Below, piece by piece: positions 54,781 through 62,171 of a stretch of 64,000 nt of DNA. The notes under the pieces were generated by a model, which saw only the letters and a list, made by a program, of their open reading frames with translations, was not told the origin of the DNA and made no database searches. Every line of letters starts with the position of its first letter. Position 1 is the first letter of the stretch. The stretch lies in assembly GCA_013359235.1 (NCBI GenBank), contig JABWCE010000003.1, positions 80,517 through 144,516 on the forward strand. Direction: 5' to 3'. The translations under genes were made by a program, and so were the position numbers. The DNA comes from Bacteroidota bacterium. GTDB lineage: Bacteria > Bacteroidota > Bacteroidia > NS11-12g > UBA9320.

Positions 54781-57339
54781 TTATTTTAAAACATTGAATA
54801 GCTTATTAGTTGCAATAAAATCATTGTTTTGTATTGTAATAAAGTAAATGCCTTCAGAAAGCTGAGGGTATGAAAATACTATATGATTTTTATCTGCATA
54901 AGTATTAAAAATTTCTTTGCCTGTAATATCTGTAAAAGTGATTTTTGAATTAAATAATTCGTTGGGTATATCAATATTTACAATACCTGCTGATGGTTGA
55001 GGATAAATTTTAATATAATTGCGAATTGAAATTTTATTGATTTTTGCAGGTATAGAAACCGTTAAAGTATCAGACATTGTACAACCAAAAACATCAGTTA
55101 CTGAAAGTTTTACAATAGATTTTATCAAACCGGAGCTTGTAAAATCGTGTACAGGGCTTTTTACAGTATCTGTTTGTCCATCGCCAAAATCCCATAGATA
55201 TTTTGTTCCTTCACTTTTTTCTTCTGGGTCAAAAGTTAATTTTTTCCCATTTGCAATATAGGTAAACTTTGCCGTTGGCAATGGCTTGATACCTATTTTT
55301 ATTTTATTGCTTATTTCTGTGCATACTCCATTTTTTACTATAACCCAAACGGAATCTAAATTTTTTGGATTTGAATGTTCCCAATTAGTGTTAGTACCTT
55401 TTTGTACAGAAGTGCTGTTTAAAAAAAACTCGTATTCAGTATAGTTGTTTGGCTCTGCTTTAAAAATAGCGGGAAAACCTTCACAAAATATATTTTGCAA
55501 ATTGCTTGATGAAAAATCAAACAAAGGTTTATCCCATACCTTTACAGTTGCATTTCTGTTTACAGTAGGGCAACTTAGATTATTGCTGTCGGTCAATACA
55601 ATTTTGTATGTTTGAGAAAAATCTGAAGTTATTTTAAAAACTGTGTCTTTAAATTGAGAACTATTGTTGATTTTTAAAGAATAATGTTTAGTATTAAGAT
55701 TTTTAATTTTAAAGTTAATGTCGTCACCTTTACATACTTCACTATCGTATTCAACATTATAAGTTACCGGGCTGCATGGTATTGAGCCACACAAAACTTT
55801 AGTAATATTGCTTTGATAGCAAGGAAAATTATCAAGAGCTTTTACCCAAACCTGCACATCAGTATTTGACGGAAAACCAAGAACCGAATGCGATAAGCCA
55901 TATTTACCACTACTCGGGTTTATCCAACTTCTACCGGTATCAATACTCACCTGATATCCTTTAGCTTTAGGTATTGAATCCCAACTAATGAGAAAACTTG
56001 CCACAGTTTTATCGGTACAATTCAAAACAGGATCTTTTAGTTTATTTTTTACAACAAAATTATACTTATTACTTGGAGGTGTAACACATCCGTTAGCATC
56101 TTTACCCTTGGCATATAGGTCGGTTGAAGTACTCAAATTAAAAGTTTGAGGGTTTACAATTGTTTTTTGAAACAAACCACTTGATGTATAATATAAAATT
56201 GTATCAAAAGTAGTGGTTCCGCTTGCAGTAACTTTTACAGGATACTCATAGCAAATAGTATCATTATTTACATCACGCGAAATTGAAATAGTTTGTGCAG
56301 TAAATTTTGTAATTTTCACAGGTCCTGCAGTATTTGTACAATTATTATTGTCTTTTATTGATACATAATAATTGCCCGAATCTTTTGCCCAAATTGTTTG
56401 CGAAACAAAACCTCCTGGCGACCAAGTGTATTGGTAATTTGGGCTATAAGTTGCAGTAAGTTTTACCGAATCTCTACTGCATATTTTGTATGATGTTGCT
56501 CCTGAAATAGAAAGCGAAGGTTTGCTTTTTACCACTATTTTTAATGAATCTGCTATTGAAACTCCTTTTGAATTTTTAGCTGTTAAAATTGCCCAATAAG
56601 TCCCAACATTGTTATATTTTACTACAGGATTTTGTGAAGTAGATGAAGATGGCGTTCCACCGGTAAGTACCCAAGCCCACGAAGTAGCAGAGTTTGTCGA
56701 AGAGCCATTGAGGGTAATGCTCGTACCGGCACATGTTACCGAATCTTTGCAAAAAGCATTTGCAACCGGAAGCAGTGATGATGGTGATAATGTTAAAGAT
56801 TTAGAATAAGCGTTATCACCAGACGAGCTGTTATCGCCATTTGCAGCCAAAACACAAAAATAAAACTTTACATTTCCAACATTTTTTGATGGTGCTTTCC
56901 ACGAAAAAGTCCAGTCTGTAGAATTTGTACCTGTTGATGATGTGCCCGTTGAAGTTTGTAATACATACTCTCTTGAAAGAGATGATGATGAACCCTTTTG
57001 CACTCTACCCGATGCCGTAAAAGAACCAGCCATTTTATTTTTCAAATCGAGAACTGTAGCTTGAAAACCCCATTTTGAAATACCCGATTGAGAATGTGAA
57101 ATTTTTATAGTGTAAGTTGAATCGGGGATATACCCGTTACCTGTAAAATTTGAAGATAAGGTAATATTATTCCAATTTGAACCCGATGTGATTATAGACC
57201 CACTATGGCAACTTGTACAATTTGATTCACTTGGAGCATTTGTATTTTCTGAAGGTGGACCATACGGATAGGTCATAGAATAATAAGCTGCCAAACAAAG
57301 TGCAATTGTAAATGTTGAAATAACTATTTTTCTTATCAT
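54781..57339 (-). CDS. T9SS cargo: Reeler-like N-terminal domain with CxxCH, PKD/Ig domains, type A CTD
   Basis: Signal peptide from ATG 57339 (promoter element TAATTTTG 57366-57373), CTSCH, WTFSWKAP, PKD motifs (YLWDFGDG), IYPQP..LSEGIYFI. Confidence 0.85.
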   Translation of the reverse strand: MIRKIVISTFTIALCLAAYYSMTYPYGPPSENTNAPSESNCTSCHSGSIITSGSNWNNITLSSNFTGNGYIPDSTYTIKISHSQSGISKWGFQATVLDLKNKMAGSFTASGRVQKGSSSSLSREYVLQTSTGTSSTGTNSTDWTFSWKAPSKNVGNVKFYFCVLAANGDNSSSGDNAYSKSLTLSPSSLLPVANAFCKDSVTCAGTSITLNGSSTNSATSWAWVLTGGTPSSSTSQNPVVKYNNVGTYWAILTAKNSKGVSIADSLKIVVKSKPSLSISGATSYKICSRDSVKLTATYSPNYQYTWSPGGFVSQTIWAKDSGNYYVSIKDNNNCTNTAGPVKITKFTAQTISISRDVNNDTICYEYPVKVTASGTTTFDTILYYTSSGLFQKTIVNPQTFNLSTSTDLYAKGKDANGCVTPPSNKYNFVVKNKLKDPVLNCTDKTVASFLISWDSIPKAKGYQVSIDTGRSWINPSSGKYGLSHSVLGFPSNTDVQVWVKALDNFPCYQSNITKVLCGSIPCSPVTYNVEYDSEVCKGDDINFKIKNLNTKHYSLKINNSSQFKDTVFKITSDFSQTYKIVLTDSNNLSCPTVNRNATVKVWDKPLFDFSSSNLQNIFCEGFPAIFKAEPNNYTEYEFFLNSTSVQKGTNTNWEHSNPKNLDSVWVIVKNGVCTEISNKIKIGIKPLPTAKFTYIANGKKLTFDPEEKSEGTKYLWDFGDGQTDTVKSPVHDFTSSGLIKSIVKLSVTDVFGCTMSDTLTVSIPAKINKISIRNYIKIYPQPSAGIVNIDIPNELFNSKITFTDITGKEIFNTYADKNHIVFSYPQLSEGIYFITIQNNDFIATNKLFNVLK

Positions 57340-57657
57340 TGTTTTTTTTTGTGATTTAAAAGTCGCAAAATTATTCCCGTAATGGATATTTTTTAACAAA
57401 AGAAATTAACAAAAGAGGTTGACAAATAGTTTTTTAATAATGAAAACAAGCCCAGAAAAAGATGAAAAACTCTAAAAAATTTACATTAATCAAACATAAT
57501 GACATTTGCATTACATTTTTTTAAAATTATAAAATCAACTTGTAATTGTAGTAACCAAAACTATTCTTTATTGTTAAAATAAATGCGTGATAATTTAAAA
57601 CAAAGGTACTTTTAATATTGAATTTCATAATTTTGAAACCATAAAATCTAACAAAAA

Positions 57658-57861: not shown

Positions 57862-58392
57862 ATGAAAGCATTTTTATTATCAATAGTTCTCAGTTTGGCA
57901 TTTGTATCTTGTTTCAATTGCGAAAATTCAAATTCAATTAAAAAAAAAGATGAAAAACCTCCAATACAAAATGATACAACTCCAAGAGTTACGGGCATTG
58001 GCGGTATTTTCTTTTTTGCCGATAGTGTTGAAAAAACCAAGAATTGGTATAAGAATAATTTAGGTTTGGAAACGAATGATTATGGCTCTGTTTTTGAGTT
58101 TAGAAATGCAAACCGTCCCAATGAAATTAATTATCTTCAGTGGAGCCCTTTTAAGAAAGGAAACAAGTATTTTGAACCATCAAAAAGAGAATTTATGATT
58201 AATTACAGAGTAAACAATATAGAGGGATTGATTAGAAAATTGAAAGCAAACGGAGTAATAATTAACGATACAATTGCAACTTATGAATATGGAAAATTTG
58301 TTCATATTACCGACAACGAAGGCACAAAAATAGAACTGTGGGAGCCCATAGATAGCGTACTTACCAAGATTGGCTCTAAAACTACAAAATAA
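57862..58392 (+). CDS. VOC/glyoxalase family protein with lipoprotein signal
   Basis: LAFVSC lipobox; RVTGIGGIFF, FMINYRV, YGKFVHI.D.EG.KIELWEP. Confidence 0.87.
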   Translation: MKAFLLSIVLSLAFVSCFNCENSNSIKKKDEKPPIQNDTTPRVTGIGGIFFFADSVEKTKNWYKNNLGLETNDYGSVFEFRNANRPNEINYLQWSPFKKGNKYFEPSKREFMINYRVNNIEGLIRKLKANGVIINDTIATYEYGKFVHITDNEGTKIELWEPIDSVLTKIGSKTTK

Positions 58393-58429
58393 TTTTATCA
58401 AAATTTTTATTTTTTTAAATCAGAGAACA

Positions 58430-58437
58430 TATATTTG
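58430..58437 (+). promoter_or_regulatory. -7 promoter element driving the cobalamin riboswitch leader
   Basis: TATATTTG immediately before the riboswitch P1 strand. Confidence 0.75.
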
Positions 58438-58439
58438 CC

Positions 58440-58620
58440 AACAGAATATGGATTTGTCATCTGTTCAAAAATATTGATGATGAATTAAAAGGGAATCAGG
58501 TGAAAATCCTGAACATTGCCCGATGCTGTAAGTTCTTAAAAAAAGTTTTTCAACATTGCCACTGTTTTTACGGGAAGGCTGAAAAAACTGAACAAGTCAG
58601 AAAACCTGCCGTATTCTGTT
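58440..58620 (+). ncRNA. Cobalamin (B12) riboswitch
   Basis: P1 AACAGAATATGG/CCGTATTCTGTT; AAAAGGGAATCAGGTGAAAATCCTGA, CCCGATGCTGT, GCCACTG, GGGAAGGC and B12-box AAGTCAGAAAACCTGCC. Confidence 0.95.
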
Positions 58621-58738
58621 ATATTTTTTTTGATGCTTTCGGGAACAAAAGTGATAAAAAGTCTTGATTGATTTAAAGATTTTGGCTTTCAACATTTTAA
58701 AACATCAAAAATTACAGGTTTTGTAAAATAATTATAAA

Positions 58739-60316
58739 ATGTATAAGTCAAATTTATTTCTACTAATTTCAATGGTAACTTCTATCGTTACTGTGTTTGC
58801 ACAAGAACCAAGATTTAATATTTCTACTTTCGAATCAGTAAAACTGTATTCTAAGGGATATTACAATGGCGATGACTCAAAAGGCGGTTTTGAAAATGGT
58901 CATTTTTTTTACCGAACATTATATAACAGTTCATGGAAATCATGGTCGGGCATTGCAGTTTCAAACCACTCTGATACCTTAACCAACAGCTATACCAACG
59001 AATATAGCAATATATGCGGTACAGGAAACTTCAATTCTAAAAACTTTGCAATATGTTTTAATTTGGGAACAATTATATGTCAGAAACCAACAATTATAAG
59101 TGGTTTGTACGTTACAAACACTACATATACTTATCATACAATAAAAAATGGCTCAGCTTATTCTAAAAAATTTGGAGGGAAAACCGGAAATGATACCGAC
59201 TGGTATAGGGCAAAATTTGTAAGTTACCGAAATGGTAATAGAGCAGATTCTGTGTATTTTTACCTTGCTGATTTCAGATTTGCTGATAATTCGAAAGATT
59301 ATATCATTAAAAATTGGGTATGGGTAGATTTGTCAGGCATTAAAACCCCTACAGATAGTTTAATAATTTCGTTTGAGTCAACCGATAATGGTGTTTACGG
59401 CATGAATACACCTGCTTACATGGCTTTTGATAATTTCAACAATTCATCAAATATTATAGATATTTATAATATAAAAGCTTCGTTTTTGAATGACAGCAAT
59501 AAAATATGGAACGGAAAAACAGATACTTCGGGTGGTTTTGATATAAATGGTTTTTATTTTGTAAACAACTATAATACATCTTGGAATTCGTGGAGTGGCT
59601 GGGCAATAAGCATTGATAATGACACATCAAAAAAAGATTATAATGCACAGTATTCTTCAATTACAGCATCGCAATTGAACTTAATATCGTATGGAAGAAG
59701 TGTTATAAATTTACCTTCGAACAAAACTCAAAGTACTATGTATTTTTACCTGTCAAACAATACATATACATACAAATCTATGAAATACGGAGATGCATTC
59801 TGTAAAAAATTTGGTGGTAAAAATGGTGACGAAAAAGATTTTTTAAAACTAAATATCATAAAATATTCTGATGATGAAAATACAGATACTTCAGTTGTTT
59901 ATTTGGCTGATTTTATAAATAAACCGAGTAATATAGCCTCAAGTAATATTATTTGCAAAGTAACTTTGAATGAAAATACAAGCCGTATTGAATTTCAGTT
60001 AGAATCATCAGACAATGGAATTTATGGAATGAACACCCCTGCATTTTTTTGCCTGAGTGCAATAAGTAAAACAAATAAATTAGCATCTGAAAAGATACAT
60101 AAAATTAAAGTTTTTCCTAATCCTGCCGTTGATTATATAATTACTGAAATTTCAAATGTTGAAAGTTATGAAATTGCTGATATTACTGGGGCTAATTTCA
60201 CTTTTGAAACAATGATAGATTCAAATAAAATAGATATTAGCAAACTTCCTGGAGGGGTGTATATTTTGAAACTAAAAAGCGTAAATAACTATTATTACAC
60301 AAGGTTTGTAAAATAA
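58739..60316 (+). CDS. Tandem DUF4465-domain protein with T9SS type A sorting domain
   Basis: Signal peptide ending VFA-Q; two copies of SWSG..S, KKFGG, YLADF, ES.DNG.YGMNTPA; C-terminal VFPNPA..LPGGVYILKL..RFVK. Confidence 0.88.
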   Translation: MYKSNLFLLISMVTSIVTVFAQEPRFNISTFESVKLYSKGYYNGDDSKGGFENGHFFYRTLYNSSWKSWSGIAVSNHSDTLTNSYTNEYSNICGTGNFNSKNFAICFNLGTIICQKPTIISGLYVTNTTYTYHTIKNGSAYSKKFGGKTGNDTDWYRAKFVSYRNGNRADSVYFYLADFRFADNSKDYIIKNWVWVDLSGIKTPTDSLIISFESTDNGVYGMNTPAYMAFDNFNNSSNIIDIYNIKASFLNDSNKIWNGKTDTSGGFDINGFYFVNNYNTSWNSWSGWAISIDNDTSKKDYNAQYSSITASQLNLISYGRSVINLPSNKTQSTMYFYLSNNTYTYKSMKYGDAFCKKFGGKNGDEKDFLKLNIIKYSDDENTDTSVVYLADFINKPSNIASSNIICKVTLNENTSRIEFQLESSDNGIYGMNTPAFFCLSAISKTNKLASEKIHKIKVFPNPAVDYIITEISNVESYEIADITGANFTFETMIDSNKIDISKLPGGVYILKLKSVNNYYYTRFVK

Positions 60317-60359
60317 ACAAAAATTATTTGACATCTGATATTTACTTTTGCCATTTGAA

Positions 60360-62171
60360 TTGAAAAATATCAGATACCTTTTTTCTTATTCTGCAAAATA
60401 TCCTGCACAAAGACTGCGTTTTGTGATATTCAACATTTTGGCATCGTTTTTTGGAGCATTTTCAATAATGACAGTTGTGCCGTTTTTAAAAATCATATTC
60501 AATCAAAACTCCGATGTTACAAGCCATACTGAAAACAATAAACTAAGTGAGTTGGTAAATGTTTGGTTGAAAAATCAAATTGAAAACTGGGGAAATTACA
60601 ATTCATTACTCATTTTTTCGTGTATGCTCGTTTTTATGTTTTTTATGAAAAATCTCAGCTTGTACATTGCATATACAGGTTTGTCGCACATGCGTGCCGG
60701 CATTTCAAACCGCTTAAAAAGTGATATTTACAGCAAATTGCTAAAACTTCCTTTGTCTTATTTTTCAAATGAAAGAAAAGGAGATATTATTTCAAAAATT
60801 GCAAACGACATAAAAGAAATAGAATGGAGTTTTATAGGTGTACTCGAAATGGTTTTAAAACACCCTTTTATGATTGTCATACCTTTTAGTTTGCTTTTTT
60901 ATATAAGTTGGCAATTGACAATATTTGTAATAGTAGTTTTGCCTGTAAGTGGCTATATAATTAGCCGTTTGGCAAAAAAACTAAAATCAACGGCAAGGCT
61001 TGGCAATGAAAAATTGGGACAAGTAATTTCAATTTTTGAAGAAACTATAAGCGGCATAAAAATTATTAATGCATTTAATGCTCAAAAAACAACCCAAAAA
61101 CACTTTGAAGAGAAAAATGACGAACATTTTAAACTAAGTCGCCGCGTTTTTAAAAGAGAATATGCCGCATCGCCATTAAGCGAATTTATGGGTTCAATAG
61201 TTATAAGTTCTATACTTGTATTTGCCGGAAGGCTTATTATTAATGACGATTTTGGGCTAAGTGGCGAAATGTTTATTATGTACATTGCCATGTTTAGTCA
61301 ACTAATTCCACCGGCAAAAGCACTTAGCGAAAGCTATTTCAGATTAGAAAAAGGAATGGCTTCAATGGACAGGGTTAATGATATTTTAAAAGCCGAAGAA
61401 GGTATAAATGACAGAAACGATTTGCCCGACCCCGGTACTTTAACACAATGTTTGAGGTTTGAGAATGTTACATTTAGTTACCAAAACAATGTAAATGTAC
61501 TTGAAAACATAAATTTCACAATAAAAAAAGGACAGAAAGTAGCTCTTGTCGGAAGTTCGGGTGCAGGAAAATCTACAATTGCCGACCTTTTGCTGAGATT
61601 TTATGACCCACAGCAAGGAACCATATTTTACGATAATACCGATATTAAAAATTTATCACTTTTTAAATACCGAAACAAATTGGCTGTGGTAACGCAAGAC
61701 CCTATTTTGTTTAACGATACTGTTGAAAACAACTTAAAACTTGGCAATCAAAATGCAAGTGACGAAGAGATGATAATTGCTGCAAAACAGGCAAATGCTC
61801 ATTCGTTTATCGAAAAACTTGAAAATGGTTATAAAACCAATATTGGTGAGCGTGGAGGAAAACTATCTGGAGGACAAAAACAAAGACTTACAATTGCCCG
61901 AGCCATCTTAAGCAATCCCGAAATTTTGATATTAGATGAGGCTACTTCTGCACTCGACTCTGAATCGGAAAAACTTGTAAACGATGCACTTGAACACCTA
62001 ATGCAAAACCGCACTTCTGTTATTATTGCACACCGATTAAGTACTATACAGAGTGCAGATGTTATTATAGTAATGGATCATGGAAAAATTGCCGAAATGG
62101 GGAAACATAACGATTTAATTAATTTGAAAGGGATATATTATTCGTTATACAAACTGCAATCGCTTGGCTAA
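60360..62171 (+). CDS. ABC exporter, fused permease/ATPase (MsbA-like)
   Basis: Six TM helices, GSSGAGKST, LSGGQKQR, ILDEATSALD, IAHRLST. The track's start 60348 is inside the -7 element TACTTTTG (60343-60350), so TTG 60360 is preferred. Confidence 0.92.
   Translation: MKNIRYLFSYSAKYPAQRLRFVIFNILASFFGAFSIMTVVPFLKIIFNQNSDVTSHTENNKLSELVNVWLKNQIENWGNYNSLLIFSCMLVFMFFMKNLSLYIAYTGLSHMRAGISNRLKSDIYSKLLKLPLSYFSNERKGDIISKIANDIKEIEWSFIGVLEMVLKHPFMIVIPFSLLFYISWQLTIFVIVVLPVSGYIISRLAKKLKSTARLGNEKLGQVISIFEETISGIKIINAFNAQKTTQKHFEEKNDEHFKLSRRVFKREYAASPLSEFMGSIVISSILVFAGRLIINDDFGLSGEMFIMYIAMFSQLIPPAKALSESYFRLEKGMASMDRVNDILKAEEGINDRNDLPDPGTLTQCLRFENVTFSYQNNVNVLENINFTIKKGQKVALVGSSGAGKSTIADLLLRFYDPQQGTIFYDNTDIKNLSLFKYRNKLAVVTQDPILFNDTVENNLKLGNQNASDEEMIIAAKQANAHSFIEKLENGYKTNIGERGGKLSGGQKQRLTIARAILSNPEILILDEATSALDSESEKLVNDALEHLMQNRTSVIIAHRLSTIQSADVIIVMDHGKIAEMGKHNDLINLKGIYYSLYKLQSLG

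Follow-up and report, generated by a model that had tools for sequence, protein, structure and literature searches.

A cobalamin riboswitch followed by one gene for a two-domain secreted protein lies at positions 58430-60316 of the window, the 64,000-nucleotide (nt) stretch of Bacteroidota DNA analysed here (contig JABWCE010000003.1 of assembly GCA_013359235.1, positions 80,517 to 144,516). The open reading frame (ORF) starts 111 nt downstream of the riboswitch end, on the same strand and with no other ORF in between. It encodes 525 amino acids (aa), in which two DUF4465 domains, D1 and D2, stand ahead of a C-terminal sorting domain (CTD) of the type IX secretion system (T9SS). Pfam and NCBIfam searches identify a glyoxalase-fold protein upstream and an MsbA-like ATP-binding cassette (ABC) exporter downstream, and they find no TonB-dependent receptor among the neighbouring ORFs. 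A sequence-only reading of this DNA had named a complete riboswitch, a Sec signal, two DUF4465 domains with a Por_Secre_tail and the absence of an adjacent receptor, and had proposed from them a T9SS-delivered extracellular scavenger of cobalamin (vitamin B12) under riboswitch control. All of these elements were recovered, the Sec signal by inspection. The core of the proposal is supported by the fold of the protein, by the presence of PorU and PorV, by the B12 profile of the genome and by the linkage of related genes to riboswitches.

The aptamer scores 100.5 bits against RF00174 in Infernal (gathering score 31.5; E-value 5.8e-24) and is aligned to model positions 1-189 of 189, without truncation. 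It is one of only two cobalamin riboswitches in the genome. The features of the locus are collected in Table 1.

Table 1. Features of the riboswitch-DUF4465 locus, in window coordinates (D1 and D2, first and second DUF4465 domain)
Feature	Position	Strand	Basis
Candidate Bacteroidota -7 box TATATTTG	58430..58437	+	Pattern match; just ahead of the first paired aptamer bases
Cobalamin riboswitch aptamer (RF00174) with B12 box, complete	58432..58627	+	Infernal
Regulatory hairpin GCUUU-CGGGAACA-AAAGU	58635..58652	+	Directly after the closing helix of the aptamer; conserved
GUCUU/AAGAU hairpin, weak, with UUU after it; may act as a weak terminator	58661..58683	+	By eye
Gene for tandem DUF4465 protein with T9SS CTD, 525 aa	58739..60316 (stop codon included)	+	ORF, profiles, model
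Putative Sec type I signal peptide (residues 1-21; VFA/QE; lipobox Cys absent)	58739..58801	+	Inspection; model helix 2-19
DUF4465 D1, residues 65-233; HI loop NTPAY (Y227), DE-helix Y130	58931..59437	+	Pfam
DUF4465 D2, residues 281-440; HI loop NTPAF (F436), DE-helix Y343	59579..60058	+	Pfam
T9SS type A CTD, residues 458-525	60110..60313	+	Pfam, NCBIfam

Membership of the DUF4465 family (PF14717) is unambiguous, at 211.7 bits in total against a cut-off of 25, with 141.2 and 89.2 bits for the two stretches. D1 and D2 are about 34-35% identical (E-value 8e-30) and are the only DUF4465 domains in the genome. DUF4465 is the BtuJ family, of which eight divergent members bind B12 (PMC13398666). In Bacteroides thetaiotaomicron, riboswitch-controlled btu loci encode the surface lipoproteins BtuJ1 and BtuJ2, and binding by BtuJ proteins involves a conserved tyrosine of the HI loop (NTPxY, Y245 of BtuJ1) together with a tyrosine of the DE-loop helix (Y146) (PMC13398666; PMC13616437; 10.1101/2025.07.01.662609; 10.1101/2025.07.31.667871). 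BtuJ1 is exposed at the surface, its affinity for cyanocobalamin and cobinamide is nM to sub-nM, and cells require it to grow at 0.4 nM B12 (PMC13616437). The sequence-only reading had named BtuJ as a B12 binder, which agrees with the printed record (PMC13398666; PMC13616437); DUF4465 B12 binding and the riboswitch-controlled loci are already published.

Among solved structures, the sequence of the 525-aa protein matches BtuJ1 (PDB code 9FCT, 4.7e-16), D5EK51 (9HMU, 1.9e-14) and BtuJ2 (9I2L, 2e-07). An AlphaFold2 model built on an alignment of 64 relatives has a mean predicted local distance difference test (pLDDT) score of 91.3, and its helices 129-137 and 342-350 correspond to the DE-loop helices. 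Foldseek places the B12 complex 9HMU first (E-value 5.3e-17, template-modelling (TM) score 0.81 on the target, root-mean-square deviation (rmsd) 2.0 over 231 columns), and BtuJ1 9FCT (TM 0.72) is also among the top matches. The matches to 9HMU, 9FCT, 4JQR, 9I2L and 4E9K have E-values from 5e-17 to 4e-10, and the model has the augmented beta-jellyroll of the family. In D1 the HI loop carries the NTPxY motif, Y227 aligns to Y245 of BtuJ1 and Y130 to Y146, and the asparagine N223 is also present. D2 keeps the HI-loop asparagine (N432) and the helix tyrosine (Y343). By likeness to the characterized members, each domain of the 525-aa protein may bind corrinoids.

The export signals lie at the two ends of the protein. 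The N-terminus, MYKSNLFLLISMVTSIVTVFA/QE, shows typical n-, h- and c-regions without cysteine, a reading made by inspection only. The four nearest relatives (L027-L030) share the MYKS start, and this conservation supports a start at 58739 over the 514-aa form held in the protein database. Residues 1-30 contain no cysteine, and the protein lacks the lipobox of signal peptidase II (SPII) substrates that marks the BtuJ-type surface lipoproteins; in contrast, two relatives without a Pfam CTD match (L014 and L015) have lipoboxes ending in GCS. At the other end, Por_Secre_tail (PF18962) scores 33.2 bits (cut-off 27) over residues 458-523, and the type A sorting domain TIGR04183 scores 34.9 bits (cut-off 23) over residues 458-525, the extreme C-terminus. 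The CTD matches T9SS CTDs in the PDB (7PZJ, 4.3e-05; 8GLK, 0.12) and is modelled as a beta-sandwich. The T9SS machinery of the genome was assessed from PorU (1193.9 bits, cut-off 420) and PorV (469.9 bits, cut-off 250), which are encoded side by side on one contig.

If the CTD match were non-functional, the product would be a periplasmic B12-binding protein. The CTD scores are indeed modest (33-35 bits), and non-lipoprotein members of the family have been described as bearing periplasmic targeting signals (PMC13398666). We nevertheless regard this alternative as very improbable: both curated cut-offs are passed by a domain that sits at the very end of the chain and is a beta-sandwich in the model, PorU and PorV are both encoded, and the CTD recurs in 71 of the best 80 related loci (family-built profile) and in 8 of 11 relatives from a phylum-wide sample (Pfam). 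The count of 71 in 80, among the best matches to the profile of the 525-aa protein, bears on the description of non-lipoprotein members as periplasmic in PMC13398666.

The relatives place the locus in a large family. Among 8000 proteins scored, 4276 pass an E-value of 0.001, and PF14717 occurs together with PF18962 in 118 of 120 among the matches listed, most of them about 535 aa long. An even sample of the phylum, with three candidates scored per genome, gave matches at an E-value of 1e-20 in 12 of 401 genomes, the host's own included; in each of the 11 others RF00174 has a match ahead of the gene and in its orientation, at a distance of up to about 2.1 kb in ten and of 4.9 kb in the last. 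In species-representative genomes, a single-protein query found no relative among 183 pattern matches, and an alignment query then found relatives; a profile scan gave at least 604 among 610 candidate stretches, and the best 80 loci were kept. These were classified with family-specific hidden Markov models (HMMs), and their riboswitches were located with an nhmmer profile of 12 riboswitches. The nhmmer coordinates agree with Infernal in the five loci compared by hand (L027-L031). Infernal, run on 50 of the 80 genomes (those holding L027-L076), finds RF00174 in 48.

The 80 loci comprise 49 tandem and 22 single-domain genes with a CTD, and 4 tandem and 5 single-domain genes without one; one tandem gene counted without a CTD (L075) runs off its contig, its C-terminus lying outside the sequence. 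By the nhmmer profile, a same-strand riboswitch precedes the gene at 71 of the 80 loci, and it does so for 47 of the 49 tandem genes with a CTD; the contigs of the two exceptions have just 262 and 613 nt upstream of the gene. The 47 fall into two arrangements. In 31 (L068 included, after correction of an over-extended ORF start) the riboswitch is 83-216 nt upstream, as in the window. In the other 16 it lies 1.87-2.13 kb upstream, behind an intervening ORF; of the 14 such ORFs scanned, 13 carry Plug and/or TonB-receptor domains (Pfam received 128 of 210 neighbour ORFs, those of L027-L075). After the 31 direct cases come unrelated genes in 17, among them L027-L029, which share the MsbA-like and Sua5 synteny of the window; a CTD protein of about 306-352 aa follows in 10, with a TonB-dependent receptor next in 8 of these, and four could not be judged. 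The tandem form is present in all 10 other genomes of the genus and in 15 of 18 in the family, while the sister family has the single-domain form in 6 of 12 genomes.

The host genome (2.65 Mb, 44 contigs, 31.6% G+C, 100% complete by marker genes) encodes the B12-dependent enzymes methylmalonyl-CoA mutase (1297 bits), MetH (1157 bits) and IcmF (1778 bits), as well as a CarH-like regulator. A search of this complete-rated genome gave no match to CbiC, CbiB/CobD or CobS. These results argue that the organism depends on B12, and they give no sign that it makes or remodels the vitamin. The second riboswitch (L005, 12216-12407) heads an operon of three genes, which encode a TonB-dependent receptor (649 aa; best NCBIfam match TonB-B12, below its cut-off), a CTD protein of 326 aa and a homologue of DUF5074/BtuG. 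The receptor gene is the btuB that the sequence-only reading had expected elsewhere in the genome. Judged from the two riboswitches, exactly two transcription units are predicted to be under B12 control, the importer operon and the DUF4465 gene.

No Pfam family matches the 326-aa protein encoded between btuB and btuG (L005 9278-10261, minus strand). Its identity to the CTD proteins encoded behind tandem DUF4465 genes at other loci is 38%, and by profile it has a T9SS CTD (8GLK, 6.4e-09). In a wide VIA search the best match of its N-terminal domain is BtuH2 (7BIZ; Z 12.7, rmsd 3.0, 158 residues), followed by the C-terminal domain of BtuG1 in 8BLW (Z 11.3) and by CBM32 folds (Z at most 9.5); Foldseek on the model of the 326-aa protein returned only beta-glucuronidase sandwich domains (TM at most 0.24). 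The combination of a BtuH-like domain with a CTD argues that this genome exports both BtuH-like and BtuJ-like binders by the T9SS.

From these observations we propose a mechanism that we consider likely. Low intracellular adenosylcobalamin would leave the DUF4465 gene on, and replete B12 would shut it off through the riboswitch, in parallel with the operon for btuB, the BtuH-like CTD protein and btuG. The pre-protein would cross the inner membrane by Sec on a type I signal that provides no lipid anchor. The CTD would then be recognised by the T9SS and the protein carried across the outer membrane, where PorU, the sortase of the system, would remove the CTD and leave a product either attached to the cell surface or released. 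Outside the cell, the BtuJ-type jellyrolls would bind corrinoids, which would pass to BtuG-BtuB, the outer-membrane importer whose genes lie in the second riboswitch operon. Ligand binding, export, anchoring or release, and hand-off are steps that we infer from the published properties of the family and from established T9SS biology.

The last of these steps has an alternative, in which B12 is hoarded in a reservoir or kept from competing neighbours as a weapon, and none is transferred to the cell's own BtuG-BtuB. The gene is unlinked to btuB, 17 of the 31 direct relatives are followed by genes with no relation to B12 uptake, and BtuJ1 has been proposed as an extracellular reservoir (10.1101/2025.07.01.662609). 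The same report has BtuJ1 passing B12 to other Btu proteins in vitro, however. In the other relatives the gene is part of a btuB operon, where it follows the receptor or precedes a BtuH-like CTD gene and the receptor, and repression by B12 suits an aid to uptake. Hoarding without transfer is, in our estimate, decidedly unlikely.

The proposed capture and delivery of corrinoids also has points against it, and these concern D2, the leader, the gene downstream and the published record. In D2, F436 replaces the B12-contacting HI-loop tyrosine that the papers call critical, and the NTPxY motif is lost. Taken alone, D2 matches the solved structures more weakly (best 1.3e-07). It also evolves faster: of 2016 protein pairs, 1515 are more alike in D1 than in D2, the D2 of the 525-aa protein has a mean identity to its relatives of 40% against 49% for D1, and second domains sit on longer branches in the domain trees. 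The sequence-only reading had D2 lacking the DYIIKNWVWVDLS segment of D1. The segment is not simply missing; the aligned stretch of D2 has diverged and is four residues shorter. This shortening is seen in the subclade of the 525-aa protein, and a conserved tryptophan of the stretch is lost in that protein and in its four nearest relatives.

These features would be expected if D1 alone captured B12 and D2 were a decaying copy, a spacer or stalk that keeps D1 off the cell surface. We think this unlikely, as the pocket of D2 is otherwise well kept. The change from tyrosine to phenylalanine retains the aromatic ring and costs one hydrogen bond. Besides N432 and Y343, the GDAF loop and both tryptophans of SWSGW are intact, and the GDxF loop is nearer the family consensus than that of D1. 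D2 is modelled as a full jellyroll with its DE helix, at pLDDT values mostly of 86-98. Across 64 tandem relatives, the second domain has the HI-loop asparagine in 64, the HI-loop tyrosine in 60 (phenylalanine in the other 4) and the helix tyrosine in 60, a constraint which argues that both sites are used in the family. The domain endings set against each other in the sequence-only reading, FCLSA in D2 and MAFDN in D1, do differ, but it is FFCLSA of D2 that is nearer the family consensus YFCxD, and not YMAFDN of D1. Its further suggestion, that the two domains prefer different corrinoids, found no support; BtuJ makes no significant contact with either axial ligand, and its binding is indifferent to both (PMC13616437).

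The history of the two domains was examined in trees. If one ancient duplication lay behind all tandem forms, a tree should gather the first domains into one group. Instead, both in a FastTree tree of 138 domains and in an IQ-TREE tree (LG+C20) of 46, the first domains of a subclade pair with its second domains, by lineage and not by position. The approximately unbiased (AU) test rejects a single clade of first domains, and with it the one ancient duplication (delta lnL 73, p 0.0017), for a D1 group that was chosen after the first tree and with long branches present. Identity between D1 and D2 of the same protein falls into three tiers, 34-46%, 50-62% and 67-75%, with the 525-aa protein at the bottom (34%). 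The pattern would fit either repeated doubling or gene conversion that homogenised the copies in some lineages. As read from these alignments, the lineage-wise pairing of D1 with D2 and the F436 exception are new here.

In the leader, the best-conserved element outside the aptamer is the hairpin at 58635-58652, which is invariant in an alignment with the four nearest loci where the remainder of the leader is variable. By regular expression, a hairpin of TTCGGG type follows the aptamer in 59 of 65 riboswitches, whichever gene comes next. In the hairpin at 58635-58652, UCGGG (58639-58643, the closing U and the start of the loop) is complementary to CCCGA in the C-rich aptamer loop (58519-58523), and this hairpin is probably the kissing-loop partner of that loop. 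In solved cobalamin riboswitches the L5-L13 kissing loop links the binding of the ligand to the expression platform, and the pairing would correspond to it. Compensatory changes between the two loops were sought in the variants L077, L086 and L102, which give no clean complement, and we make no claim of covariation.

How the leader would switch the gene is less clear. The terminator scan reports no terminator in it, the weak hairpin at 58661-58683 included, and its minimum-free-energy fold is no better than that of shuffled sequences (z 0.20). At the position of the weak hairpin, L027-L030 have a 7-8 bp A/U-rich hairpin followed by U6. The lone terminator-like site that the scan placed near the leader is on the wrong strand, inside the aptamer, and was set aside. 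A sigma-70 scan round the leader gave 21 promoter-like sites against 17.8 expected. The promoter and the -7 element of the next gene, both named in the sequence-only reading, fared poorly. The boxes are present (TATATTTG, judged by a Bacteroidota -7 consensus that we presume to apply, and TACTTTTG at 60343, before the MsbA-like gene), yet the window has 125 copies of TAnnTTTG where chance alone predicts 126; at such a frequency the boxes are no evidence for promoters and rest on their position only.

Transcript data add little. Contigs from four RNA-labelled runs, two of which are probably DNA, are 100% identical to parts of the stretch (leader, within the ORF, MsbA-like gene). They are possibly DNA-derived, one of them begins upstream of the presumed promoter, and we draw no conclusion from them on expression or termination. 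The leader contig, 422 nt long and from an RNA-Seq library (58303-58724, 100% identical), runs from the end of the upstream gene across the complete riboswitch and leader to a point 15 nt short of the start codon; it may represent leader RNA, read-through or DNA.

The absence from our searches of a clear terminator or of a helix that sequesters the start codon is what would favour a riboswitch that does not control the DUF4465 gene, or a protein with a ligand other than corrinoids. Against this, nothing but 111 nt of ORF-free leader on the same strand separates the two, the arrangement recurs in 31 tandem relatives with a CTD, and the protein family has solved B12 complexes. A locus with no link to B12 is therefore, in our view, extremely improbable.

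The gene downstream raises a related point. The MsbA-like gene (60348-62171; TIGR02203 at 481 bits, below the cut-off of 602) starts 31 nt past the DUF4465 stop codon (gap 60317-60347), with no terminator detected by the scan. It may be served by read-through or by a separate promoter. An MsbA-like gene is also next in L027-L029, at 130-144 nt. Read-through from a B12-repressed promoter into a gene resembling those for lipopolysaccharide export would be odd. As to the published record, our searches turned up no CTD-bearing DUF4465 protein whose binding, secretion or expression has been studied by experiment; the Fluviicola protein F2I9N3, a B12 binder (PMC13398666), would be an exception if it has a CTD.

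Comparison with known systems clarifies what is shared and what differs. BtuJ1 (BT1491) and BtuJ2 (BT1957) of B. thetaiotaomicron (9FCT, 9QPM and 9I2L) have the same family and augmented jellyroll, the NTPxY and DE-helix tyrosine motifs seen in D1, cobalamin riboswitch control, and action outside the outer membrane (PMC13616437). They are single-domain SPII lipoproteins encoded inside btuB loci, whereas the 525-aa protein has two domains, an apparent type I signal without cysteine, a CTD in place of the lipid anchor and its own riboswitch away from btuB. The best structural match, D5EK51 of Coraliomargarita akajimensis, and the other DUF4465 proteins tested in PMC13398666 extend B12 binding to environmental, non-gut members; these proteins differ in being described there as lipoproteins or periplasmic. 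Closer to the window are the single-domain DUF4465-CTD proteins in btuB operons of other Bacteroidota (L006-L013), which combine the same domain with a CTD and have the same riboswitch linkage, but carry one domain (316-411 aa) and usually lie beside btuB. BtuH2 (7BIZ), a B12-binding surface lipoprotein, is an accessory binder of the same relay with a fold unlike DUF4465; the BtuH-like protein of this genome differs from it in carrying a CTD and no lipid anchor. HmuY, HusA and HasA are secreted or surface haem scavengers of Bacteroidota and proteobacteria that feed TonB-dependent receptors. The likeness to them, as high-affinity binders of tetrapyrroles outside the cell, is one of concept, as folds and ligand are unrelated and release of the 525-aa protein is only a prediction.

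Accessory B12 capture has been worked out almost wholly in gut Bacteroides, where all the players are lipoproteins. The locus and its relatives, encoded in more than 600 stretches of species-representative genomes, send the same binding modules by another export route. The DUF4465 papers that were searched, PMC13398666 among them, make no mention of T9SS, type IX or tandem, and a search of main texts, mostly outside subscription journals, found no printed account of T9SS-exported or tandem DUF4465 proteins or of a riboswitch unit for such a gene alone. The protein offers a natural two-domain B12 binder for tests of stoichiometry and specificity, and a route to asking whether B12 scavengers can be diffusible. 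A wider picture can be offered tentatively, although we would give it less than even weight by some distance: many environmental Bacteroidota might run the cobamide relay of gut Bacteroides with T9SS cargo (BtuJ and BtuH with CTDs), the BtuJ module having been doubled repeatedly in separate lineages, and the doubled form might leave the cell as a soluble carrier with two B12 sites, a 'cobalophore' gathering corrinoids at a distance in communities such as those of activated sludge. The DNA runs that contain the stretch are labelled as sludge, bioreactor or wastewater metagenomes, some of them possibly the source of the assembly.

Several relatives depart from the common layout. Nine of them (L041, L043-L047, L050 and L072, of 634-654 aa, and L073, of 758 aa) have about 110-230 extra residues between D2 and the CTD, outside both HMMs. 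In L060 (5617-7433) one operon runs from the riboswitch through a receptor (Plug match) and the tandem DUF4465-CTD gene to CobT (DBI_PRT) and CobS, an order that links capture to genes for lower-ligand remodelling, which the genome of the window lacks. L016 (5215-6780) encodes a tandem protein of 521 aa without a CTD, followed by a BtuF-type periplasmic binding protein. Two further tandem proteins without a CTD, one with a lipobox-like N-terminus (L056) and one of 1071 aa (L090), come from records not labelled Bacteroidota. In the window itself, a second T9SS cargo is encoded two genes upstream of the DUF4465 gene (54781-57399, minus strand); its 872 aa comprise a choice-of-anchor V domain (84.2 bits), PKD domains and a CTD.

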